This document shows positions 8,546 through 45,000 of a stretch of DNA of 64,000 nt, piece after piece. The notes under the pieces were generated by a model. The model was not told where the DNA came from. It was given only the letters and a program-made list of their open reading frames with translations, and made no database searches. Source of the DNA: a virus; IMG/VR virus record IMGVR_UViG_3300037504_000588, positions 1-64,000 of that record; one strand, written 5' to 3'. The stretch's first letter is position 1. Each line of letters begins with the position of its first letter. The translations under genes were made by a program, and so were the position numbers.

Positions 8546-9346
8546 ATGAGGTATTTTGGGGGGAAATCACGTATATCTAAACAAATAAGTAATTATATAA
8601 ACAATTTATCATGCAATATTTTGGGGGAAAGTCAAGAATATCAGAAAAAGTCGCAAAATTTATTAACACACACACACACAACACCTACGTTGAACCTTTT
8701 TGTGGGGCATGTAATGTAGCATCTAAAGTGAATATCAAAAATAAAATATTAAACGACAAACACCCTTATTTAATAGCAATGTGGGAGGCATTACAAGAAG
8801 GTTGGTTACCTCCAACAGATATTGATGCGGATATGTATTATTATATTAAGAAAAATAGACATGAATTTCCAATGGAAGTCTGTGGATTTATTGGTTTTGC
8901 TTGTGCATTTGGAGGAGTTTGGAATGGGGGGGTTCGCAAGGGATAAAAAAGGTAAAGAAGGTGGTGCAAATTATGCACAAAGAGGATGTAATTCCGTAAT
9001 GAAAAAACTTGAAGGAATAAAGGGTGCTAAATTTTATAATCTTGATTTTCTTGATTTAACTGACCATATTCCTGAAGGAAGTTTAATATACTGTGATCCT
9101 CCTTATAAAAACACTTCACCTTACAACAAACAGTTACTTGGCGAATTTCCTTATGAAATCTTTATAGAATGGGTTAAAATAATGTCAGAATATAATATTG
9201 TTTTAGTTAGTGAATATAAACACAATGTCTATAAAGATGCAAAAATAGTTTTGGAAATACCACAAAGGAAATCCATGAGAGATAAAAATGGAAACCATAT
9301 AGAAACAGTAGAAGTTTTATTTACATATAATAATTTAGAGCAATGA
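8546..9346 (+). pseudogene. Dam-family (D12) adenine methyltransferase, split by a frameshift in a G7 tract; possibly phase-variable
   Basis: YFGGKSR and YVEPFCG in 8611..8946; IYCDPPY in the next frame. Removing one G at 8926-8932 fuses them. Duplicate start at 8546; (CA)7 at 8667-8680. Confidence 0.8.
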
Positions 9347-10092
9347 AATATATGGGAAGTAAAAACCGAATTGCAAAGCACATATTACCAATAATGCTAA
9401 AATATAGAACACCTGAAATGACTTGGGTAGAGCCTTTTGTTGGCGGTGCAAACATGATTGATAAAGTTGAAGGTAAGCGAATAGGTGCAGACTTAAATAA
9501 ATACCTGATTGCTTTATTTACAGCACTACAAAATGGGTGGACGCCACCGAAATTTATTGAAAAGGATAAGCACAAGGATATAGTAAACAATAAAAGTAAT
9601 TATAACCCAGAACTTGTTGGTTGGGCAAGTATAGCTTGTAGTTATAGTGGGAGTGGTTGTGGATTTGCAGGTGTTGTAAAAACAAAAATAGGAACTAAAA
9701 GAAATTACCAAACAGAAGCTATTAATAATATTAATAAACAATTGCCAAAAATTAAATATGTTGAGTTTATTAGTTGTAGTTATGCTGATTTAGATATACC
9801 TCCAAATAGTTTAATTTACTGTGATCCACCTTATGAAAATACAAGTGGTTATAAGAATGTTAATAGCTTTGACCACGATTCTTTTTGGCAATGGTGTAGA
9901 CAGAAAGCAAAAGAAGGGCACACAGTATTTATAAGTGAATATAATGCACCTGATGATTTTTATTGCATTTGGGAGGGTGAATTTAAAAGTAGTTTAAGTG
10001 CGAATGGCAAAAGTGGTGGAAATAAAAATAGTACTGAACGCCTTTTTACCTCAATAGCTGCGATAGCAGACAAAGAACGTGGGCAAACTTAA
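9343..10092 (+). CDS. Dam-family (D12) adenine methyltransferase
   Basis: MKYMGSK, WVEPFVGG, IYCDPPY, FISEY. Confidence 0.9.
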   Translation: MKYMGSKNRIAKHILPIMLKYRTPEMTWVEPFVGGANMIDKVEGKRIGADLNKYLIALFTALQNGWTPPKFIEKDKHKDIVNNKSNYNPELVGWASIACSYSGSGCGFAGVVKTKIGTKRNYQTEAINNINKQLPKIKYVEFISCSYADLDIPPNSLIYCDPPYENTSGYKNVNSFDHDSFWQWCRQKAKEGHTVFISEYNAPDDFYCIWEGEFKSSLSANGKSGGNKNSTERLFTSIAAIADKERGQT

Positions 10093-13778: not shown

Positions 13779-13784
13779 AATTAT

Positions 13785-13815
13785 TTTGTTTTTATATAAA
13801 AAAGTATTATATTTG
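13785..13815 (+). promoter_or_regulatory. Bacteroidota-type promoter (-33 TTTG, -7 TATATTTG)
   Basis: tttg-tttttatataaaaaagtat-tatatttg, 19-nt spacer; member of a repeat family. Confidence 0.7.
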
Positions 13816-13833
13816 TAAACTTAAATTTGAACT

Positions 13834-14325: not shown

Positions 14326-14883
14326 ATGAAACACGAAAGTATATTTATCCACACGCCTTCTAAAACAATAGAAATATTAATAGGTGAATTCGGGAGTGAA
14401 GTAGATGGTGACAAATTAACATCTATTGATTACAGTAATCTTTACGGTGAAGCCATAAGTGTTTCCGCTTTACTTAATAAAGTTGGAATACTTAAATCCC
14501 AAGCAGAAGATCAATATAACGAAAAGAAATTAGAGTTTGATATATACGAAGCCGAAAGACGAAAAGAAATGAGGAGACAGGCTACTGACAATGGAGGTAA
14601 GTTTCAGTACGAAAAAGACGGAGAGTGGATGAAGATGACTGAAAAGTCATTAGACGAAGCTATTATATTAGATAAAGGATGGCAGGTTAAAAAGAAGAAT
14701 GTGTTTAAAGCACAAAAAGATTTAGGGTTTGTGGATGCTCTGTATTGGGGGATACAAAGCAAGGACAGAAAGTTGAGCGTTATGATGAAGGGTGTGTCTC
14801 CAGAGGAATTATCTAATGAAATAGTTGAAGGTAGCATCAACACCCTGTTCATTAAGAAACACAAGAAATTAAGTAACAATTAA
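14326..14883 (+). CDS. Helical protein, possibly a UvsY-like recombination mediator
   Basis: Coiled-coil character and position in the SSB/RecA block; function is inference. Confidence 0.4.
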   Translation: MKHESIFIHTPSKTIEILIGEFGSEVDGDKLTSIDYSNLYGEAISVSALLNKVGILKSQAEDQYNEKKLEFDIYEAERRKEMRRQATDNGGKFQYEKDGEWMKMTEKSLDEAIILDKGWQVKKKNVFKAQKDLGFVDALYWGIQSKDRKLSVMMKGVSPEELSNEIVEGSINTLFIKKHKKLSNN

Positions 14884-16671: not shown

Positions 16672-17667
16672 ATGGATCAGTCTATTTTAATTTCAACAGA
16701 TTGGCATTTAAAGGAAGATAATGTTGATCTAATTAAACATTTAGCTATACAGAAAAGAAATTTAGCTAAAAAATTAGGTATAAAGAAATTGTTCATCTTA
16801 GGAGATGTGTTTCATAACAGAATTTCTCAGAAGCAACAAGTATTGTCAGCTTTACATACTATACTTGTTGATATTTTTTATGGATACGAAGTATATATTA
16901 TTCCAGGAAATCATGACAAAACTGATTATAATTTAAAAGAAAGTTTTTTAGATTGTTTTTCTGCTTATAAAAAAGTAATTAGTAATTATGAATATTTACA
17001 ATTAGGGGATGTAAGATTTCATTTTATGCCCTTTTTTAAAGAAAATATTTGGATTGAAGAGTTCACTCCAAAATTGAATAATGATTGTTTTAATATACTT
17101 TTGACACATATTGCAATAACAGGAAGCAAAAACAATGACGGTTCGTTGGTAGAGTCTTCATTGAATGCAAAAATGTTTGAAAAATTTGATCTTGTTCTTT
17201 CAGGACATTACCACAATAAACAAAAAATTGGTGAAAATTTTTATCACATTCCTTCAATATGCCAGCATAATTATGGAGAAGATAAAGAAAAGGGGTTTAC
17301 AATATTACATAATGACAATAGAATAGAGCTATATAAATCAACCTTTCCTACATACGAAAAGATAATTGTTAATGTGGACGAAAAAAGCAAAAAAGAAATA
17401 GATTCTATTGTAGAAAAATATAAAGACAAAGATAATTGTAGAATAGAGTTAATAGGCAGTGAAAGCAATATTAATAGTATTGATAAAAACAAAATACTTT
17501 CACAGGGTATTGACGTTAAGGCAAAGATAAATGAAATAGAAGACACATCTATACAAGGGCAAATTACTGAAAAAATAACTGATAAAAGATTAAAAGAGGA
17601 ATTTAAAGAATTTTGTGAAAAAGAAAAATTAAATTTTAAAGAAGGTTTAGAATTATTAAAAAATTAA
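16672..17667 (+). CDS. SbcD/Mre11-like nuclease
   Basis: TDWH, LGDVFH, PGNHD, SGHYH motifs; SbcC nearby. Confidence 0.9.
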   Translation: MDQSILISTDWHLKEDNVDLIKHLAIQKRNLAKKLGIKKLFILGDVFHNRISQKQQVLSALHTILVDIFYGYEVYIIPGNHDKTDYNLKESFLDCFSAYKKVISNYEYLQLGDVRFHFMPFFKENIWIEEFTPKLNNDCFNILLTHIAITGSKNNDGSLVESSLNAKMFEKFDLVLSGHYHNKQKIGENFYHIPSICQHNYGEDKEKGFTILHNDNRIELYKSTFPTYEKIIVNVDEKSKKEIDSIVEKYKDKDNCRIELIGSESNINSIDKNKILSQGIDVKAKINEIEDTSIQGQITEKITDKRLKEEFKEFCEKEKLNFKEGLELLKN

Positions 17668-17672
17668 CAAAT

Positions 17673-18647
17673 ATGACAAAAGAAAACACTATTACAATAA
17701 ATCAAGTAATTTCTAATATTGAAAAAAGATTTGGAAAAGAAGCAATCGCAGGAAAACAAGAAGGGGTTGAGTTTGTTTCTTCTGGCTCAATTTCCCTTGA
17801 TGTTGCATTAGGAGGAGGATGGGCTAAAGGAAGGATTGCTGAGATATATGGATGGGAAAGTAGTGGTAAGACAACAGTAGCCTTACATCTTGCAGCAGAA
17901 ATACAAAGGTTAGGTAAGGCTGTTGTTTATATAGATACAGAGAATTCTCTTGACACAGTCTATGCACATAAGTTGGGAGTAAATATTGAAGATAAGGGTG
18001 GTTTGTGGTATTTAAGTCAACCGGAAGATGGAGAAACAGCAATTGAAATAGGAAGAGAGTTTGCAAAATCGAAAGATGTAGGGTTAGTAGTGTTTGACAG
18101 TGTAACCTCTATGTTACCCCGTGCACAAATACAGGGAGAAGCAGGTGATCAAAAAATGGGGTTGTTGGCAAGATTAATGTCACAATACATGCCAACATTA
18201 AAAGACCCGATAAAACGCTCAGGTTGCATTATTTTATTTATCAATCAATTGCGTGAAAAAATTGGAGTAATGTTCGGAAGCTCCGAAACTACAACAGGTG
18301 GCAATGCTCTTAAATTTTATGCATCGCAAAGGGTAAAGATTTCAAGAAGCGGACAAACTAAAGACAACAATAACGATATAATAGCTAACGGAACAAAATG
18401 TAAAGTGGTTAAAAACAAAGTTGATTTACCTTTTAAAGAGGCGTTATTTAAAATACGCTTTGGGGAAGGTATTGACAAGCTAAGTGAAATTATTGATATA
18501 GCTGCAGATGCTAATATTATACAAAAAAGGGGAAGTTGGTATAATTATGGAGACATTAAACTTGGACAAGGTGAAGAGAAAGTAAGAGAACTTTTGAAAG
18601 ATAATCCTGAACTTGTAGAAGAAATTAAACAAAAAATAAAACAATAA
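17673..18647 (+). CDS. recA: Recombinase RecA
   Basis: GWESSGKTT, FINQLREKIGVMFG, TTGGNALKFYAS, KVVKNKV. Confidence 0.97.
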   Translation: MTKENTITINQVISNIEKRFGKEAIAGKQEGVEFVSSGSISLDVALGGGWAKGRIAEIYGWESSGKTTVALHLAAEIQRLGKAVVYIDTENSLDTVYAHKLGVNIEDKGGLWYLSQPEDGETAIEIGREFAKSKDVGLVVFDSVTSMLPRAQIQGEAGDQKMGLLARLMSQYMPTLKDPIKRSGCIILFINQLREKIGVMFGSSETTTGGNALKFYASQRVKISRSGQTKDNNNDIIANGTKCKVVKNKVDLPFKEALFKIRFGEGIDKLSEIIDIAADANIIQKRGSWYNYGDIKLGQGEEKVRELLKDNPELVEEIKQKIKQ

Positions 18648-18652
18648 TTACT

Positions 18653-20656
18653 ATGTTTTTAAATTCATTATATTTAAAAAATTTTATTTCTTTTGAAGAA
18701 CAAGAATATGTTTTTAAAAGAGGTGTTCCTGTTTTAATTCAAGGAAAAAATTATTACAGAGAAGGGCAAGAAAGTAATGGAAGTGGTAAAACTGCTTTGC
18801 AGGCAGGAGTAGAATATTGTTTATTGAAAACAACTTCACGTAAAGAAAGGGACGTAAATCTTATTCGCAGAGGCTATAAGCAATCTATCTTGAAATTAAA
18901 TGTAGAATGTCCTATAAGGAAAGAAACGTTGAAGATACTAAGGGAGATTAATTTAAAAGGCTCTTCTACATGCAGGATAGAAATAAATAATGAAGAATTA
19001 TTTGACACAAAGAAAGGTAATGGAACCAATGACGAAGCAAATAATTTTATTATGAAATGGTTTGCATTTGAAGATAAAGAAGATTTAAAGAATTATTATA
19101 TAATGAATAAAGAAAGTCACAGATCATTCTTTAAATCTTCTAATACTAAAAAACTTGAATTAATTGCCAGATTATATGACTTTTCAAGTATAGATAATGC
19201 GGTTATAAAATTAAATAATAAAATATCTGAAAAAGAAAAAGAAGTTTCAAAGTTACAAGAAGAAATTTATAAAATAGAAGGTAAGATTGAAGCAAATGAA
19301 GAAAGTATTGAATCTTCGTCTTCTAAAAAAGATTGGGAAAAGCAAAAAGAATTAAAAATAAAAGAAAAAGATGTTGAGATTATAAATGAAGAAAAATTAT
19401 TAAAAGAATTAGAAAACGATATATTTAAAAATAAAAAGGAAAAAGATTCATTACAAAATGAAATTGGTAAAATAAATAATGAAATTAATGAAGTTACAAA
19501 AGATTTAAAGGAAAAATCAAAAGAGTTTGAAGGAAATATTGAAAAACTTGAAGCAAAAAAGGAAGATAGTCAATCTTTAATAGATGAAAGCAATGATATT
19601 AAAGATAGCTATAATCAAGAACTTGAAAAAATAAACAAAAAACTTTCTTCTATTAACAAAAATTTGATGGATTCTGTTGTTTGTCCAAATTGTGAATTTG
19701 AATTTTTACCGGGAAAAGATGTTGATGTAAAAGAAGAAGAAAAAAGGAAGAATGAAATTGAAGAAAGTCTTAAGTCTATTAATAATAGCATTAAGGAATG
19801 TCAAGAGTTAATAGATAACGGAAAAGAGCAAAAATTAGCCTTTAAAGAAAAAATTAAAAATGAACAAGAGAAAAAACAAATTAAAACTAAAAAAATAAGA
19901 GAATCTCTTGAATCAATTGAAGAAAATTTAAATACAAAAAAGAAAAATCTTTCAAGTGTTGAAGAATCTATTTATGCCAAAGAACAAAAAAAGAAAAGAT
20001 ATAGTGATAATATAAAAACCATTAAGGAAGAAAAAGCAAATATTATAAAGGAGGAATACAATGATAAATACATTTTACAATTAAAAGAAAAAAATAAAGA
20101 ATATTTAACAGATAAAACAAACAAAGAAGATGAAGTGTCTTTAATAGAAGAAGAAATAACATCTTTAAAGAAATGGATTAGCGATTTTAATAAATTTAAA
20201 ATGTTTCTTTCTAATAAAGTCTTATTAATTATTCAAAATAAAATTAATAAATGTTTAAAAGATATGAAAAGCGAATTACGTGTTAAAATTGAAGGATTTA
20301 AGCAAAATTCTGATGGAACACTTAAAGAACAGATCACTCCTTATGTTTTAGATAATTCAGATATTTGTTCTTTTAATAGTTTTTCAGGAGGAGAAAGAGC
20401 GAGATTAAATTATGCAGAAATTGTAGCAATACAAGAGCTTATAAACAATTCTCATCCTCACGGAGGGTTAGATTTAATGTGGGCTGATGAAATTAATGAA
20501 GGATTAGACCCACTGGGTACTGTTAATGTGCTTAAATCTTTAAAACACTTAAATAAAACTATTTTGTTAACTACCCATGTTTCGGTTGATGATATGTATG
20601 ATAATAAAATAGTTGTGGAAAATAGAAATGGGGTAAGTAAAATACAAACAAATTAA
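18653..20656 (+). CDS. SbcC/Rad50-like ATPase
   Basis: NGSGKT Walker A, coiled coils, CPNC zinc hook, FSGGE signature, WADE Walker B. Confidence 0.9.
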   Translation: MFLNSLYLKNFISFEEQEYVFKRGVPVLIQGKNYYREGQESNGSGKTALQAGVEYCLLKTTSRKERDVNLIRRGYKQSILKLNVECPIRKETLKILREINLKGSSTCRIEINNEELFDTKKGNGTNDEANNFIMKWFAFEDKEDLKNYYIMNKESHRSFFKSSNTKKLELIARLYDFSSIDNAVIKLNNKISEKEKEVSKLQEEIYKIEGKIEANEESIESSSSKKDWEKQKELKIKEKDVEIINEEKLLKELENDIFKNKKEKDSLQNEIGKINNEINEVTKDLKEKSKEFEGNIEKLEAKKEDSQSLIDESNDIKDSYNQELEKINKKLSSINKNLMDSVVCPNCEFEFLPGKDVDVKEEEKRKNEIEESLKSINNSIKECQELIDNGKEQKLAFKEKIKNEQEKKQIKTKKIRESLESIEENLNTKKKNLSSVEESIYAKEQKKKRYSDNIKTIKEEKANIIKEEYNDKYILQLKEKNKEYLTDKTNKEDEVSLIEEEITSLKKWISDFNKFKMFLSNKVLLIIQNKINKCLKDMKSELRVKIEGFKQNSDGTLKEQITPYVLDNSDICSFNSFSGGERARLNYAEIVAIQELINNSHPHGGLDLMWADEINEGLDPLGTVNVLKSLKHLNKTILLTTHVSVDDMYDNKIVVENRNGVSKIQTN

Positions 20657-22250: not shown

Positions 22251-22310
22251 AAAATAATTGTAAAAATATTTTGTTTTTATATATAAAAGTATTATATTTG
22301 TATTGTATTT
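22251..22310 (+). promoter_or_regulatory. Repeated ~60-bp promoter element (Bacteroidota -33/-7)
   Basis: aaaataattgtaaaaatatTTTG-N19-TATATTTGtattgtattt; near-identical copies at 27251, 36841 and 44942. Confidence 0.8.
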
Positions 22311-22342: not shown

Positions 22343-22657
22343 ATGAAAGCAACAGAAATTAATTTAAAAAAAGACGGTTTTAATTTTAACTGCAACACTT
22401 ATCCAGCTCGCTCACATTACAGGTTTACCATGCGCTTAGGATGTGTTTTTCCTACAACAAGAGCACAAGCAAAATACTTTATTACAGAAGATATTTGGTT
22501 AGATGTATTAAACGGTGATGATGTTGAAACGGTTGAATCTATGCTTGTTAAGCATGGATTTGAAGGGGATTACAGATTTACAAAATCAAAAAAATGGGTT
22601 AGGCTTCAAAACCAAATTGATTTACACGAAGCATTAAAAAAAGAATATAACTTATGA
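22343..22657 (+). CDS. Hypothetical protein
   Basis: ATG at 22343 after the promoter and an A-rich leader. Confidence 0.65.
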   Translation: MKATEINLKKDGFNFNCNTYPARSHYRFTMRLGCVFPTTRAQAKYFITEDIWLDVLNGDDVETVESMLVKHGFEGDYRFTKSKKWVRLQNQIDLHEALKKEYNL

Positions 22658-22763
22658 ATAACGAGCAATCAAACGGGCAACAAAAATTATTTCATATACA
22701 AAATATTAAATTTTATAAAATGAAAACAAAGAACGAAATTATTAAACAGTAAATAACATTGAT

Positions 22764-23051
22764 ATGAAAAATAAAAATAACAATACAATAGAAACTGAGA
22801 CCATACCGTATGATGCGATGTTAGCAGCTGATCTTTTTAAGAGTGGGAAGGCATATTATTGTCAGCATTACCCAAGCCGTGAAGAGTGGCTTATACTTGG
22901 CATAAGTAAAGACTTTAAAAAAGTGTGTGTTGCTGGTTGGCCTCCAACAATTGCTAATGCGGAGGATTGTGAATTATGGAAACTTGCAAGGGATTTGACA
23001 GAAGATGAAATTGAATATAGACAAAAAGAATTTGGCAGCGGGTGGCTTTAG
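22764..23051 (+). CDS. Hypothetical protein (cassette-like)
   Basis: Most of the ORF lies between gttagcagc (22820-28) and gctgctaac (23056-64). Confidence 0.6.
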   Translation: MKNKNNNTIETETIPYDAMLAADLFKSGKAYYCQHYPSREEWLILGISKDFKKVCVAGWPPTIANAEDCELWKLARDLTEDEIEYRQKEFGSGWL

Positions 23052-23169
23052 GCTTGCTGCTAACCATTATATATAAAATCAACAACGAAATAAAATAAAT
23101 TATTAACCAACAATGCTGAATAAATATGCCGATAATGGCGTTTGATGTATTGTTATAAAAAATGTTTTT

Positions 23170-23364
23170 ATGAAAGATGTAGAGATAGTGTATTGGGGTA
23201 AAACACCTTTAACAAACATAGATGTATATATGTTAAATATAATTAATGAAGATGGAACTAAAACACCTGTTTATAGTAATGATAGGGTGTTTGAGGATGT
23301 ACGGTTGATGTGTGATTATGAAACGGCAACAGCTAAAAAAGTAGAACTGTTAAATGTTTTATAA
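23170..23364 (+). CDS. Hypothetical protein (cassette-like)
   Basis: Stop TAA lies inside ttttaTAAc, the inverse of gttataaaa at 23152. Confidence 0.6.
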   Translation: MKDVEIVYWGKTPLTNIDVYMLNIINEDGTKTPVYSNDRVFEDVRLMCDYETATAKKVELLNVL

Positions 23365-23475
23365 CGGTAAGCATAAGGCAAGTGCCTAAACGAATATTGA
23401 ATAAATGGACTACAACGTTGAGCGTATGCGCCTGTTGGCGTTTTGGTTGAAATTACAAACCTTAAAAACAGACAA

Positions 23476-24024
23476 ATGATAAACGAGATACGAAACGACA
23501 AAAGTAAGATGGCTATGCAGTATGACACATTGTTATGCCCCGTTATTTTAGACGCCTGCTGTGGTAGTAGAATGTTTTGGTTTGACAAGAAGAATCCAAA
23601 TTGTTTATTCATAGATAAACGAAGCGAGACAGTAACAGCAAAAGACAGCAGTCAAAAAAGTGGTTTAAGAACTATTGAAGTAAAACCTGACTTGATTGCG
23701 GACTTTACAGATATGCCTTTTGAAGATGAGCAATTTGCAATGGTGGTATTTGACCCACCACATCTAAAAACCCTTGGACAAAATAGCTGGATGGCTAAGA
23801 AGTATGGAAGATTGCCTAATGATTGGGAATATATGATTGCAAAGGGTTTTGATGAATGTATGCGAGTGTTGAAACCAGAGGGAACTTTAATCTTCAAATG
23901 GAATGAGCACGAAATTAAATCAAAGCAGGTTTTAGACCTAATACCTTATAAGCCACTTTTTGGACATACAACAGGGAGACAATCTAAAACAATTTGGATG
24001 GCTTTTATGAAGGGTGTCTCCTAA
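23476..24024 (+). CDS. SAM-dependent (amino-)DNA methyltransferase
   Basis: ILDACCGSRMFW, VFDPPH, ECMRVLKPEGTLIFKW. Confidence 0.85.
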   Translation: MINEIRNDKSKMAMQYDTLLCPVILDACCGSRMFWFDKKNPNCLFIDKRSETVTAKDSSQKSGLRTIEVKPDLIADFTDMPFEDEQFAMVVFDPPHLKTLGQNSWMAKKYGRLPNDWEYMIAKGFDECMRVLKPEGTLIFKWNEHEIKSKQVLDLIPYKPLFGHTTGRQSKTIWMAFMKGVS

Positions 24025-24063
24025 GTAATTTTTATTGTACCTATTTAGGTGTTATTTTTTACG

Positions 24064-24500
24064 AATTATTAACCATAAAATTTTATAAAATGAAAACACA
24101 TATTATCCCAAGAAGAAAAGGAAAAACAACCGAACTTATAAAAAAATCCGCTGAAACTGGTGACTATATAGTTTGCCATAAACTTGATGAAGCGAATAGA
24201 ATACAAGTAGAGGCTCAAGAAATGGGACTACAAATACCACTACCAATCACTTATGATGAATTTTTGAAGAAACGATATTACGGAAAAGATATCAGCGGTT
24301 TTTTGATTGATAATGCAGATATGTTCTTGCAATCACTTTCAAATGTGCCAATAAACAGTATTACAGTTAGCTCTTAATTGCGCACAACTATTATATATAA
24401 AACCAACAATGTAAACATTTGAATATGAATGTAAAACACAAATCAACTTTAGCAAATTTCAAAACAATTATTAACCATAAAATTTTATAAAATGAAAACA
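24064..24500 (+). repeat. 35-bp perfect direct repeat (24064-24098 and 24466-24500) covering leader plus start codon
   Basis: aattattaaccataaaattttataaaATGaaaaca occurs twice; partial third copy near 22708. Confidence 0.85.
24090..24377 (+). CDS. Small P-loop-like phage protein
   Basis: RRKGKTT and LIDN motifs. Confidence 0.55.
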   Translation: MKTHIIPRRKGKTTELIKKSAETGDYIVCHKLDEANRIQVEAQEMGLQIPLPITYDEFLKKRYYGKDISGFLIDNADMFLQSLSNVPINSITVSS

Positions 24501-24686
24501 ATAAAAACAAACGATACAACAACAATTAAACTTCACAAACTTCCAACTTCAACTCTTAAAGAAATAATAAGTTTGCAAGAAAACACCCCAGAAAGTAATA
24601 TTATATGTAGAGAATGTTACGAAGAGCTTCTCAAAAGAGGAAAAATTAAACCAAAATTTGAAACTAAAAATGTAAAAAAACGATAA
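24492..24686 (+). CDS. Hypothetical protein
   Basis: Starts inside the 35-bp repeat. Confidence 0.5.
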   Translation: MKTIKTNDTTTIKLHKLPTSTLKEIISLQENTPESNIICRECYEELLKRGKIKPKFETKNVKKR

Positions 24687-27257: not shown

Positions 27258-27310
27258 TTGTAAAAATATTTTGTTTTTATATAAAAAAGTATTATATTTG
27301 TATTGTATTT
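27251..27310 (+). promoter_or_regulatory. Repeated promoter element
   Basis: TTTG at 27270-73; TATATTTG at 27293-300. Confidence 0.8.
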
Positions 27311-28220: not shown

Positions 28221-28312
28221 TAGAAGTACAGACGTAGCCATATTATGCACAAACGTGCCGACTGTATGTTGTCGGTTTTTATGCGATTTTAAAACCCAAA
28301 TATTATAATATT

Positions 28313-28676
28313 ATGAGCTCACATGAATTATTTAAGAAACATTTTGGTAACCAGATAGCGGTTGACTTGAAACACCCTAACATTGAAAATTTTTTTGAAG
28401 AACTAAACGAAGAATGCTTGCAGGAAGATAAGCATAAAAAATGCAATATACAGCATGTTAGCAGCCGTGTTTTTTTTTGACCATTTTTTACCGAAAGTCA
28501 CCAAGCTAACTTTGATTGAAAAATTAGTGCTAAAATTTAAGAAGAAACTCCTTTATAGAGACGAACTGGAATTAATTACCATCGTCTATAAAAAATGGAG
28601 AGGTAAAACCTACGTACTTGATAGTTTTTATAATCCACCCGATCATTTTAATTGCAGGTGTTTTTTACGAATTTAA
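28313..28676 (+). pseudogene. Hypothetical gene split at a T9 run
   Basis: 28313..28480 (MSSHELFKK...CNIQHVSSRVFF*) joins 28455..28676 if one T is removed at 28470-78. Confidence 0.45.
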
Positions 28677-28689
28677 AAATGATAACAGT

Positions 28690-28920
28690 ATGAAAAATTT
28701 AATAAAAGAACTAAACAATCTAAGACCAACAAAAGAACAAGTAAAAGATAAACCTGCTTACTATGCTTTTGGTTATGTAGATGCTATAAATGCTGCAATA
28801 GAGTTAGTAAAAAATAACGAAGTGGCGGTTTGCGAAAAATGCACACACTATAATAAAGAACAAAAGCCTGAAATATGCAGAAGGTGCTTTAGTAATTCAC
28901 ATTTTATTGAGCAAACTTAA
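28690..28920 (+). CDS. Hypothetical Cys-containing protein
   Basis: ATG at 28690; stop is followed immediately by tgctaac. Confidence 0.55.
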   Translation: MKNLIKELNNLRPTKEQVKDKPAYYAFGYVDAINAAIELVKNNEVAVCEKCTHYNKEQKPEICRRCFSNSHFIEQT

Positions 28921-28958
28921 TGCTAACGGGATGCGGCTAAAATTTTAAAATAGATACA

Positions 28959-29201
28959 ATGAGGATTACACGCACACATTCGATTAAAAGCAAATACTTA
29001 GCAATGATTTATGACGCATTGTTATATGTTGTATTTGCTGCTTTTGAATTTATACACTACCAGCATTATAAGCAAACTTGGAACGGTAAGAAACGTTTAA
29101 AAACAATACAAATTACAGGAATAAGAAGTGCTTTATGTGATGATGTTAGCCAACGAATCAGAATAAAGTTTTACTGGAAGGTAGGCAAATATTACATATA
29201 A
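28959..29201 (+). CDS. Hypothetical protein (cassette-like)
   Basis: Stop lies within the inverted repeat. Confidence 0.5.
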   Translation: MRITRTHSIKSKYLAMIYDALLYVVFAAFEFIHYQHYKQTWNGKKRLKTIQITGIRSALCDDVSQRIRIKFYWKVGKYYI

Positions 29202-29221
29202 CGGTATAAAGACTAAAATAA

Positions 29222-29572
29222 ATGGGTGGAAATAACGATTATTTAAGCAGAAAAGAGTCATGCAATATACACGGTGTTAGGGTTAGTACCTACATAATTT
29301 GCTCGGCAATACATTTTGTAAATAACAAGAAATACCCACACCAACCAAAGAATATAAAGACAGGGATAGTAGTTGCAGGACGTAGACACCATAATGTATT
29401 TACAAGTATGAGTGCGTTGGGTGTTGACCATAAAGACTATGATGCAGTAGTGCAAGGGTTTTTAACTAATGATGATAGGTTTGTTGACCGTGAAGAGGGT
29501 GGGCGCATTGCCTACGAAGCACGGCAGATTAATAAGCTAACAAAAAGGTTGTTTAGTGAGGATTTGTATTAA
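29222..29572 (+). CDS. Conserved-looking phage hypothetical protein (GRRH...QGFLT...LFSEDLY type)
   Basis: Recognisable motif pattern; cassette-like flanks. Confidence 0.7.
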   Translation: MGGNNDYLSRKESCNIHGVRVSTYIICSAIHFVNNKKYPHQPKNIKTGIVVAGRRHHNVFTSMSALGVDHKDYDAVVQGFLTNDDRFVDREEGGRIAYEARQINKLTKRLFSEDLY

Positions 29573-29698
29573 CCATAACGAATGGGTATAAGATGTAGTG
29601 ATAGCGACCCGTAGGGTGCATTTTATACCGTGTTATCTACTGGCACGGTAAATACAGTAGAATGTTAATTAAAAGTACTAACGTAATAATTTATAAAA

Positions 29699-30490
29699 AT
29701 GTGGGATGGACAATATGCTTTTGAAAAAAGCAAAATAATACAAGGTGACTGCCTTGAAAAAATGAAACTAATACCTGATGGAAGTGTTGATATGATACTT
29801 GCGGATTTACCTTATGGAACGACTGCTTGTAAATGGGACAGTATTATTCCCTTGGATTTGCTTTGGAAAGAGTACGAGAGGATTGTCAAAGAAAATGGAG
29901 TTATATGCTTAACTGCAAGCCAACCATTTACAACAAAACTTATTGCAAGCAATTACGGTATGTTTAAGTATGAATTTATTTGGAATAAAGGCAAAAGCTC
30001 AAACTTTATGCTTGCAAAAAAGCAAATACTTAAAATGCATGAACAAATATTAGTGTTCTATCGTAAGCAACCATTCTTTAACCCACCAAAAATAAAAAGG
30101 TGTGAAAAAGATAAACGACCAGCAAATGTAAACAACATTAAGGTTGTTGAGGTTACTGGACAAAAAAGAATAGTTGTTGAATGTAAAAGTAATGAAAAAT
30201 TAGAAGGTAGTGTATTTGAACTTAGAGATAGAGAGTATGGCTTGCACCCAACACAGAAGCCAACAAGACTCTTTGAAAAGATGATAAAGACTTACACAAA
30301 CGAAGGCGACATAGTACTTGATAATGTTGCAGGAAGTGGAACAACAGGAGAAGCCTGTATAAACCTAAACAGAGACTTTATACTAATTGAAAAAGAACCT
30401 AATTATTACGAAGTAATAAAAGAGAGGGTGGGGAAGATTTTTAAAAATTATGGGCTTGACCTACAATCTTTATTAAATGAGCAAATGTAG
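29699..30490 (+). CDS. N4/N6 DNA methyltransferase (beta class)
   Basis: GDCLE, ADLPYG, HPTQKP, LDNVAGSGTT. Confidence 0.9.
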   Translation: MWDGQYAFEKSKIIQGDCLEKMKLIPDGSVDMILADLPYGTTACKWDSIIPLDLLWKEYERIVKENGVICLTASQPFTTKLIASNYGMFKYEFIWNKGKSSNFMLAKKQILKMHEQILVFYRKQPFFNPPKIKRCEKDKRPANVNNIKVVEVTGQKRIVVECKSNEKLEGSVFELRDREYGLHPTQKPTRLFEKMIKTYTNEGDIVLDNVAGSGTTGEACINLNRDFILIEKEPNYYEVIKERVGKIFKNYGLDLQSLLNEQM

Positions 30491-30654
30491 TGCTTGTGGG
30501 TAACGGTAACTTGTAAGGTGTCGTGGCTGCCTTAATCAAAGCCACACAATTTCAAATTTAAAATAAAATTAGATATGACTACAAAAAATTCAAAAACTAC
30601 TGAAATCTATACACAAGTAAGCACTAATGTATTACATAAACTACCATTAGCATT

Positions 30655-31188
30655 ATGATAACAGCATATACAGACGGTTCAGCAAGTGTAAAATCTATGA
30701 AAGGGGGATGTGGTTCTTGGATTAAATATAAAGACAGCAAAGAACATTTCATCTCCAAAGGATTCTACCCAACCAAAACGGGACGTATGGAATTAATGGC
30801 AGTCATTTTAACCCTACAATCTATAAAAGACAAAAGTGAAACTGTATTAATATACAGTGATAGTAAATATGTTGTGAATACAGTAATGCAAGGATGGTTG
30901 GATAAATGGGAAAGAGAATTCTGGCAAAACAATAAAAATACTGATATTTGTAAGGTTTTAAAAGAAGAATTATTTAAATTTACCTTATCAAACGGAAAAG
31001 TCATATTAAAGCATATAAAAGGACACCAGGATAATCTTCAAGATGAACATATTTATGGTAATAATGTAGCTGATGCATTGGCAGATTTGCATAATTTCAC
31101 AGAATTTGAAAAGGATTTAGAAGTAACCAGAGAAGAAATAAATGAAAGTGAGTTAAAATTTTATAATAAAGAAAATGGACAAAAGTAA
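30655..31188 (+). CDS. rnhA: Ribonuclease HI
   Basis: YTDGS, RMELMA, SDSKYV, HIKGH, GNNVADALA. Confidence 0.9.
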   Translation: MITAYTDGSASVKSMKGGCGSWIKYKDSKEHFISKGFYPTKTGRMELMAVILTLQSIKDKSETVLIYSDSKYVVNTVMQGWLDKWEREFWQNNKNTDICKVLKEELFKFTLSNGKVILKHIKGHQDNLQDEHIYGNNVADALADLHNFTEFEKDLEVTREEINESELKFYNKENGQK

Positions 31189-36840: not shown

Positions 36841-36889
36841 AAATAATTGCAAAAATATTTTGTTTTTATATAAAAAAGTATTATATTTA
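36841..36889 (+). promoter_or_regulatory. Truncated copy of the repeated promoter element
   Basis: Same core, but ends TATATTTA and abuts the ATG at 36891. Confidence 0.65.
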
Positions 36890-36890
36890 T

Positions 36891-37501: not shown

Positions 37502-37714
37502 ATGGAAAAATTTGAAATTCACATTGGTAAGATTTACGACTTAGAAAGTAAAACTGAAAAACCAAAACAAACAATGATTATTACAATAGAGCAATTTGCA
37601 GTAATTGAGCAATTTGCAGACATTAGAAAAGATGAATACCTTAATACGATTTACAGACTAAACCAGTGTGAATTTAAGGTAGTACCTCACATTGATTTTA
37701 AAAGCAAAAAGTAG
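37502..37714 (+). CDS. Hypothetical protein
   Basis: Stop is followed by tgctaac (cassette-like end). Confidence 0.5.
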   Translation: MEKFEIHIGKIYDLESKTEKPKQTMIITIEQFAVIEQFADIRKDEYLNTIYRLNQCEFKVVPHIDFKSKK

Positions 37715-37975
37715 TGCTAACGGGATTGGCGTAATAAGCCATGTTATAAATCTGTAAAATTATGGATAAACCAACAATTAAGGATTTGCAAAGGTGGTTA
37801 AAATATAATATAGATGAATGTATTCGCTTTAGAAAAAAAGCGGGTGGGGAGGAAAGATATGAAGACGCAATGGAATTGAAACATATGGAGAATACTTATA
37901 AAAAAGTATGGTTAAAATTAGAAAGAATGCAGGAGTAATTTTATTGTTTTATAACGTTGAGTATATGGTAAGTTG
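37715..37975 (+). mobile_element. Single cassette-like unit with a 58-aa ORF (37762..37938)
   Basis: gttataaatctgtaaaatta (37743-62) vs taattttattgttttataac (37936-55), 17/20 inverted match; mini hairpin at 37718-46. Confidence 0.6.
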
Positions 37976-38066
37976 GGGATTAAAATGTGCTGACCCTTCA
38001 GCTTGCGACAAATAAAACAAAACGGATTGCGGTATGGTATCGTGCGGAATTTTTAAAACCTAATAT

Positions 38067-44947: not shown

Positions 44948-45000
44948 TTGTAAAAATATTTTGTTTTTATATAAAAAAGTATTATATTTGTATTGTATTT
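44942..45000 (+). promoter_or_regulatory. Repeated promoter element
   Basis: TTTG at 44960-63; TATATTTG at 44983-90. Confidence 0.8.

Follow-up and report, generated by a model that had tools for sequence, protein, structure and literature searches.

Positions 28.2-30.5 kb of a tidal-flat phage genome are, in our judgement, probably occupied by four or five mobile gene cassettes that are joined by attC-like sites and lack a recombinase of their own, the recombinase being supplied in trans by an Xer-like enzyme of the host; a twin cluster (22.7-24.4 kb) and an isolated unit (37.7-38.0 kb) would be organized in the same way. The window under study comprises the first 64 kb of the 79-kb IMG/VR record IMGVR_UViG_3300037504_000588 (linear; ~75% complete); its G+C content is 30.6% and its genes are all on the plus strand. 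In the mechanism we propose, the site that joins two cassettes would fold as single-stranded DNA into a variable 6-nt arm with AAC, an unpaired 5-nt spacer, a stem-loop, 2-3 nt and GTT with a second variable 6-nt arm. A unit would be circularised with one perfect site and subsequently integrated by a crossover at the AAC/GTT core. The enzyme responsible, acting in trans, would be the Xer-like tyrosine recombinase found in Flavobacteriaceae at the head of chromosomal arrays with this site family. The cut presumably falls at AA|C on the phage coding strand, by which the hairpin and the start codon in its loop would move along with the downstream gene.

The sites form a large conserved family in phages, and the junctions of the window are degenerate members of it. 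A scan of viral contigs with the 15-mer TARTGCTAACGGGAT gave 57 matches, nearly all of them chance matches in coding sequence, and one true relative by tblastx (contig L033), whose intergenic regions display the hairpin pattern much more clearly than the window. Downstream of its gene ends, the elements of L033 follow a fixed order: N6-AAC, a 5-nt spacer (GTTGA, GTTTA, GTATG or GGGAT), a stem starting from GTATA, a loop, the return stem to TATAC, 2-3 nt and GTT-N6. GTT is followed by an arm exactly complementary to the one that precedes the next AAC (GTTGTCTGC/GCAGACAAC, GTTAGCATTA/TAATGCTAAC and GTTAGCCAC/GTGGCTAAC), and the arms of a single hairpin often have just AAC/GTT in common. The 14-mer TAACGTTGAGTATA, present in L033 and at position 37952 of the window, retrieved 112 viral stretches; ~40 of these stretches, whose G+C fraction is 0.27-0.43, contain complete elements of 57-145 nt. 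Inner stems covary (AACGG/CCGTT, AACCA/TGGTT, AACGC/GCGTT, AAGCC/GGCTT). Both the family alignment and these covarying stems fit the attC architecture (R'' AAC, spacer, L'' ... L', spacer, R' GTT), which is complete in the window at 29571-29650 and degenerate at its other sites. Strings of 15-16 nt at stop codons are exactly common to the window and its relatives.

A narrow covariance model (R1), built on 15 short elements, gave only weak matches in the window. A general model (R2), built on 48 matches that are mostly phage sites and run with filters off over the 64 kb on both strands, has its four best matches at 23408-23550, 29571-29650, 29194-29294 and 28919-29039, all on the plus strand and at junctions. 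The custom covariance model that had been suggested as a check, when an array of integron-like cassettes was originally predicted here from the sequence alone, thereby recovers the same site family in the window phage and in related genomes. A cluster of attC sites lacking integron-integrases (CALIN) is defined by IntegronFinder or HattCI calls of at least two neighbouring attC sites with no integrase close by; our own model, used in place of these programs, counts four sites from 28373 to 29650, without a recombinase. In Polaribacter phage P12002L, R2 finds nine family sites at E<1, with one site in the structural module (14497-14640) and one pair around the gp54 methyltransferase.

The array region is bordered by a DNA methyltransferase gene and an RNase H gene, between which lie ORFs (open reading frames) of 55, 73, 76, 80 and 116 amino acids and an N6_N4 DNA methyltransferase (29699-30490). 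Its elements are the following.

27656: R' box 5' of the phrog_757 methyltransferase in a co-occurring strain variant; a loose contig end reads GTGTTGTACACTGTATGGCGG, an R' box found also in contig L151.
27672-28220, plus strand: DNA methyltransferase phrog_757 (PHROG 1.2e-71), directly upstream of the array.
28245-28275, plus strand: junction B0, a degenerate N6-AAC (CACAAAC), hairpin CCGAC/GTCGG and T-run; strain breakpoint.
28373-28475, plus strand: junction B1, CACCCTAAC ... GTTAGCAGC; weak (R2 13.0 bits, E 1.2, rank six in the window).
28455-28920, plus strand: cargo of unit 1, two ORFs of 73 and 76 amino acids without a family match; arms GTTAGCAGC / AATGCTAAC, 7/9.
28919-29039, plus strand: junction B2, AATGCTAAC-GGGAT ... 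ATT-GTTATATGT (R2 17.8 bits, E 0.1); left stem lost.
28959-29201, plus strand: cargo of unit 2, an ORF of 80 amino acids; arms GTTATATGT / ACATATAAC, 9/9 (16/18 when extended).
29194-29294, plus strand: junction B3, ACATATAAC-GGTAT ... ATATACACGGT-GTTAGGGTT-AGTAC (R2 22.8 bits, E 0.007).
29222-29572, plus strand: cargo of unit 3, an ORF of 116 amino acids, phrog_839 (function unknown); arms GTTAGGGTT / AACCATAAC, 8/9.
29571-29650, plus strand: junction B4, AACCATAAC-GAATG-stem/loop/stem-GT-GTTATCTAC-TGGCACGG (R2 24.6 bits, E 0.003).
29699-30490, plus strand: cargo of unit 4, N6_N4 DNA methyltransferase (Pfam PF01555, 1.2e-32).
30493-30545, plus strand: terminal half-site B5, CTTGTGGGTAAC-GGTAA with a hairpin and no GTT box; array end.
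30655-31188, plus strand: RNase H gene, downstream border of the array region.

B4 is the sole well-preserved site of the array: it has kept its full stem, its R' box GTTATCTAC is identical in contig L097, and it is homologous to element e4 of L033. B3 has a family-like right half and a decayed left half from which the stem is lost, and its loop contains the ATG at 29222; similarly, the ATG of the ORF at 28959 sits in the loop of B2. The 15-mer TAATGCTAACGGGAT of B2 is found again after the stop codon at 37712 and in L033, and TTGTGGGTAACGGTAA of B5 is exactly common to element e1 of L033. The conserved right half of the sites, TAT-AC/GA-c-ATT-GTT-A, is translated as Y-T/D-x-L-L, likewise in the long elements of other phages. 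By tblastx, the unit 4 methyltransferase has homologues as cassette cargo in both L033 and P12002L. The cassette reading of the original prediction, with a methyltransferase among the cargo, is supported by the comparison of the site family across phages. The methyltransferases probably serve an anti-restriction role, and the remaining cargo consists of small orphan genes.

In integron cassettes the R'' box matches the R' box of the same cassette, since the excised circle crosses over at G/TT. The same swapped-arm pattern, the classical signature of cassettes entering as circles by core crossover, is present here. Within the array, the arms of the units match at 9/9, 8/9, 7/9 and 7/9 positions, and the three consecutive pairs defined by R2 agree at 4/6, 6/6 and 5/6 of the variable bases. 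The N6-AAC arm of B1 additionally matches the GTT arm at 29276 at 8/9 positions, as an outer, nested pair. For the family as a whole, we compared the six variable bases between neighbouring sites, 25 consecutive pairs drawn from 16 loci, taking cross-locus rates as the null: 8/25 pairs match at 6/6 (null 0.9%, binomial tail 6e-11) and 11/25 at >=5/6 (null 4.7%, tail 6e-9), and the own arms of a hairpin match perfectly in 2/68 cases only. Since the GTT arm of one site complements the AAC arm of the next, each unit would once have been a circle with one perfect site that entered at the AAC/GTT core.

Covariation of the arms would also be expected if GTT-N6 and N6-AAC paired in the transcript and formed a long-range stem around the gene for processing or stability. 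The arms indeed flank single genes on the transcribed strand in phages, and G-T (G-U) pairs favour the coding strand. Such an RNA-level role is nevertheless very unlikely, as nested outer pairs span several units (E1/E2 in P12002L; 28373/29276 in the window), insertion polymorphism has exact site boundaries, the sites of chromosomal arrays lie on the non-coding strand, and whole-unit exchange between genomes is seen at the arms (L033/P12002L, L166/L159).

The repeats of the window carry less of the argument. The four inverted-repeat pairs originally listed are located where they had been placed, with scores of 16/18, 12/14, 11/15 and 7/7. Compared with 100 dinucleotide shuffles, gene-flanking repeats are mildly enriched overall, but the 11/15 and 7/7 pairs remain at chance level. 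Among GTTA...TAAC-anchored pairs 100-1200 nt apart, 9 score >=9 against 5.3 in shuffled sequence and 2 score >=12 against 0.19; those that stand out are 29021/29202 (16/18) and a pair that had not been listed, 37743/37955 (17/20), which flanks a gene of 58 amino acids. The proposed attC-like hairpin at 29576-29635 is present, but its single-stranded DNA fold is not significantly above shuffles (z -0.95). A scan for TAAC-hairpin-GTTA by forced folding revealed no genome-wide pattern beyond 29576, and the 3 copies of TAACGGTA against 0.9 expected are not significant alone. The case for cassettes thus rests on comparative evidence, the 16/18 pair being the only one of the original window repeats that by itself beats shuffles. 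Chance inverted repeats combined with ordinary terminators in an AT-rich early region would account for the mild enrichment of anchored pairs, the two chance-level pairs and the folds that are no better than shuffles. As an explanation of the whole this is scarcely credible, given that the covariance-model matches cluster at junctions, that the stop-codon strings recur exactly in relatives and that the family-wide arm statistic is ~6e-11.

The claim that each gene has its own repeats is at first sight contradicted by three GTT arms that are located within ORFs: those at 29021 and 29276 follow the ATG by 62 and 54 nt, and the one at 28457 falls in codons 1-3. Units are better cut after AAC, so that the hairpin and the ORF start go to the downstream unit; when cut in this way, as in the L166 insertion described below, each ORF lies entirely within one unit.

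Between related phages, the breakpoints coincide with the core and occur at both flanks of the hairpin. Contig L166 equals contig L159 plus one unit (hairpin, GTTAGCGGT, a gene of ~75 amino acids, ACCGCTAAC) that is inserted exactly after the AAC of TTAATTAAC, and the resident hairpin is 97.7% identical. Between L158 and L179, identity is 99.98% over the 5.6 kb that lead to the AAC arm, and the sequences differ beyond it. L033 and P12002L have in common an 856-nt methyltransferase segment of 98.2% identity that starts within 1 nt of GTT, while their upstream hairpins differ. Variation in the window phage itself was followed over 21.5-39 kb in Logan contigs of three tidal-flat metagenomes (X1, X2 and X3, the last being too small to use). 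In X1 and X2, variant contigs part from the window sequence beyond 28252 and continue with a canonical CACAAC and a different hairpin, and a variant contig diverges before 27656, with a canonical GTTGTACAC box (GTT-N6) ahead of the phrog_757 methyltransferase. In the syntenic relative L126, the same helicase and RNase H genes enclose other cassettes with family sites. The gp54-type methyltransferase that the window encodes at 9343-10092 is in L126 a cassette behind a strong site (63.8 bits) in this very position. A weak site at 8681-8799 (R2 14 bits) is located upstream of the gene in the window.

The expectation that gene gain and loss in relatives would map to AAC/GTT agrees with L166/L159, with L033/P12002L and with the variant at 28252, but not with two deletions that use direct repeats. 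In the independent tidal-flat sample X2, variants exist without 22684-23096 (413 nt) and without 24093-24503 (411 nt), one gene each. A 28-nt leader, ATTATTAACCATAAAATTTTATAAAATG, precedes both 24090 and 24492 and contains one of the deletion joints. Contigs of X2 show further long joints as well, among them 28405->29942. Homologous recombination between repeats of adjacent junctions thus also removes units in natural variants.

These deletions lend weight to an explanation by homology alone, for which the promoter early stem-loop (PeSL) cassettes of T4-type phages are the model: hyperplastic regions of small genes with conserved stem-loops, in which single genes are gained, lost or replaced (PMC2839356; PMC4122927). 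Here, the junctions would be regulatory hairpins (terminators or RNA stability elements) with leaders, exchanged by homologous recombination via phage RecA and SbcCD-like proteins and without any site-specific enzyme. A SbcD/Mre11-like phosphoesterase, RecA (1.1e-91) and a SbcC/Rad50-like AAA_23 protein are encoded consecutively at 16672-20656, a hairpin-cutting and recombination kit for which the palindromic junctions could be a substrate. Both X2 deletions took place between direct repeats in adjacent junctions, and the breakpoints on both hairpin sides lie beside the conserved blocks AAC-GTTGAGTATA and TATAC-ATT-GTT. Moreover, the unrelated P12002L and window phage have no candidate enzyme in common, and the folding strand in phages is the mRNA strand. 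Yet shuffling of this type leaves the perfect complementarity of unit arms unexplained, as well as the L033/P12002L breakpoint at GTT, where the hairpins have almost no flanking homology. In addition, bacterial sites are antisense to the genes, and an RNA role can therefore not be the common function. A promoter-like ~50-mer, TTGTAAAAATATTTTGTTTTTATATAAAAAAGTATTATATTTGTA, which ends in a Bacteroidota-type TAnnTTTG box, has copies at 22254-22310, 27258-27310, 36850-36890 and 44948-45000 and a variant at 13779-13833. The copies mark the starts of gene blocks or clusters and do not occur between units, in contrast to the early promoter plus stem-loop before each unit that characterizes PeSL cassettes. 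PeSL cassettes are the closest purely phage analogue and the X2 deletions fit them, but they combine a promoter with a stem-loop, recombine by homology without an AAC/GTT core or unit-specific complementary arms, and do not recur next to a recombinase in host chromosomes. On balance, we regard PeSL-type shuffling as an improbable account of the array as a whole.

For cassettes moved by a site-specific enzyme, the question of the recombinase arises. No PF00589 match was obtained in six phage records, i.e., the 79-kb record, the complete P12002L and four other element-bearing records (two rated 100% complete). P12002L encodes a NinG/Rap junction endonuclease and three HNH genes, and no integrase. 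By tblastx, P12002L and the window phage have only methyltransferases in common, which makes a common phage-encoded enzyme unlikely and, at the level of sequence comparison, suggests horizontal spread. One phage-encoded nuclease common to all element-bearing phages was dropped as a candidate on the same grounds. A motif scan of bacterial contigs gave mostly chance matches (of 120, the hairpin filter retained 8, and 6 had the score of family sites) and pointed to a few Bacteroidota contigs; the integron-integrase model gave sub-threshold matches on those genomes. Arrays of R2 sites are located directly downstream of a tyrosine recombinase of 384 amino acids in three loci (L312, L313 and L311). 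Among a further eleven loci with 1.5 kb of flank each, R2 sites are found 3' of the recombinase in five (L315, L318, L320, L321 and L323). In total, 8/14 Bacteroidota loci have R2 sites within ~1.5 kb of the Xer-like recombinase, with E values down to 4.5e-9, and in L313 the arms are swapped 9/9 twice.

This recombinase scores 212-218 bits with NF040815 (cut-off 220), 198-209 bits with TIGR02249 (cut-off 265) and 174-189 bits with the XerC/XerD models. It is devoid of the IntI-specific segment, its alignment skipping model positions ~182-237 of TIGR02249, and has an extra ~95 amino acids at the N-terminus. Homologues occur in 89/121 sampled Flavobacteriaceae genomes (E <= 1e-40). In many draft genomes of this family the recombinase gene ends ~160 nt from the contig end, as expected if a repeated array at that position breaks short-read assemblies. 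The bacterial array loci that were fetched contain no homologue of any window or P12002L protein. The original suggestion that the recombinase comes from elsewhere or from the host therefore agrees with phages devoid of a tyrosine recombinase and with a site family beside an Xer-like one in host-type Bacteroidota, except that the enzyme is not IntI. The phage array is at most a recombinase-less satellite of the arrays headed by the Xer-like recombinase.

The strand on which the sites fold bears on the position of the cut. The model strand is more stable than its complement in 44/48 sites (P 1.7e-8). In the bacterial arrays (L312, L313, L315, L318, L320, L321 and L323) it is antisense to the cassette genes, with the 3-nt spacer on the AAC side along the genes, so that, like in integrons, the 'bottom' strand is the one that folds better. 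The model strand is instead the coding strand in the three phages compared (window, L033 and L181), and phage ORFs therefore often begin inside the site loop, the right half being translated. An enzyme that cuts at the side of the 5-nt spacer would in phages cross over at AA|C, in agreement with L166, with L158/L179 and with the 28252 breakpoint. The crossover had been placed at G/TT on the window strand; the AAC/GTT core is retained, but AA|C is the more likely boundary.

Several observations weigh against cassettes moved by a host Xer-like recombinase. The breakpoints fall on both sides of the hairpin (AAC: L166 and L158/L179; GTT: L033/P12002L), unlike a crossover on one strand at one site, and the GTT-side breakpoint of L033/P12002L requires either that the other strand is used or that events of a second type occur. 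The deletion joints of X2 lie in direct repeats of 22-33 nt inside junctions or in the repeated leader, and not at AAC/GTT. No circle junction of a unit is present among the Logan contigs; the sole contig joint that goes back, 36826->27244, lies in the repeated promoter-like element, where other contig joints also fall. Phage sites are inverted relative to the genes when compared with chromosomal arrays, and a host cassette entering the phage array would therefore lie antisense. None of the window junctions folds better as DNA than its shuffles, their scores are low (13-29 bits), and B2 and B3 lack left stems. As several window sites are decayed, part of the array may be a fossil. Finally, P12002L_attC1 is the only one among six sites for which no attI1 junction was verified under IntI1 (PMC9892861).

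That study (Qi et al., 2023) provides the closest precedent. It reports 17 CALINs in 10,705 phage genomes, including that of the virulent P12002L with two methyltransferases. Like the array described here, the CALIN of this virulent phage consists of consecutive cassettes that have AAC...GTT hairpin sites, are not accompanied by an integrase and carry DNA methyltransferases. The P12002L_attC1 oligonucleotide of Qi et al. is a member of the window site family (R1 38.3 bits), and for P12002L_attC2, the sequence at the array end, a junction with attI1 was verified under IntI1 in the same study. Two sites in divergent directions were called in P12002L, compared to the nine found here by R2. The sites are interpreted as integron attC sites, and the available text mentions neither a link to an Xer-like recombinase nor 9-nt unit-specific arms or flavobacterial spread.

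Similar to integrons (PMC4889954; PMC9024848), the sites have an R box with AAC/GTT, an unpaired spacer, an L stem and a variable loop, and the arrays combine cassette-specific arm complementarity and one better-folding strand with a single direction. They differ in that IntI is absent and that the recombinase beside the sites in bacteria is without the IntI insertion and below the integron-integrase cut-off (198-209 versus 265 bits). Furthermore, the arms measure 9 nt instead of 7, the L-box sequence is conserved (GTATA/TATAC), and in phages the sites have an inverted orientation with respect to the genes, with ORFs that begin inside the site loop. According to IntegronFinder 2.0 (PMC9024848), Bacteroidetes are nearly free of complete integrons. 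A second precedent is the recombinase-associated acquired interbacterial defence system rAID-1, a chromosomal system with immunity genes in gut Bacteroidales (Ross et al., 2019; bioRxiv 10.1101/471110). By their layout, the Flavobacteriaceae arrays resemble it, with a tyrosine recombinase of XerD-like type at the 5' end, co-directional low-G+C cassettes and repeated integron-like intergenic sequences, whereas the phage array differs in lacking a recombinase, in its methyltransferase cargo and in the opposite site orientation. As both phage CALINs and integron-like Bacteroidota arrays have been published, the window array falls within a known category. Not found in the available text of these publications were the large extent of the phage family, the link to an Xer-like platform, the inverted orientation, the recurrent methyltransferase cargo and the gain and loss of units in natural populations.

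Hyperplastic phage regions with orphan genes and anti-restriction methyltransferases are usually ascribed to illegitimate or homologous recombination; here, the unit edges are exact and defined by sites. The presence of the same sites beside a recombinase in the likely host family offers a concrete and testable mechanism of gene turnover in marine flavobacterial phages and brings gene capture of the integron-like kind into a phylum in which standard tools find almost no integrons. The failure of IntI1 on the published P12002L site may mean that IntI1 is the wrong recombinase. We tentatively consider a wider proposal, for which we see somewhat less than even prospects: phages of marine Flavobacteriia would use the Xer-like recombinase of their host during infection, by which anti-defence genes such as DNA methyltransferases would be captured, shuffled and exchanged between unrelated phages, with their sites inverted so that genes start inside their own site. 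If true, an undescribed, IntI-independent integron-like system would be one of the main forces by which accessory genes turn over in an abundant marine phage group. A cultivable pair exists in Polaribacter IMCC12002 and P12002L.

The window contains two further clusters.

22654-24391, plus strand: second cluster; arms GTTAGCAGC/GCTGCTAAC 9/9, GTTATAAAA/TTTTATAAC 9/9 and GTTATGCCC/GCGCACAAC 7/9.
37712-37990, plus strand: single unit; mini-site TGCTAAC-GGGAT-hairpin-T-GTTATAAAT, an ORF of 58 amino acids and mini-site TTTTATAAC-GTTGA-...-GTTGGGGAT; arms 17/20.

The cargo of the second cluster includes an S-adenosylmethionine (SAM)-methyltransferase-like ORF at 23476-24024, and the top R2 match of the window, 23408-23550 (28.7 bits, E 3e-4), lies in this cluster. 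The single cassette with its two mini-sites spans 37712-38066. The sequence TAA/TAG-TGCTAACGGGAT straddles the stop codons at 28918 and 37712, where the two proteins share no similarity.

Rfam at the gathering threshold assigned no family to the window, and BLAST of the array region against the phage collection returned methyltransferase homologies only. A search for relatives via the UvrD-like helicase retrieved none, and one via the other helicase retrieved distant relatives only (28-44% identity). Within the array, a run of nine T at 28469-28477 connects the ORF at 28313-28480 to the ORF at 28455-28676 in the next frame; with one T less, a single ORF of ~121 amino acids would result, and the run could reflect an assembly error or slippage.

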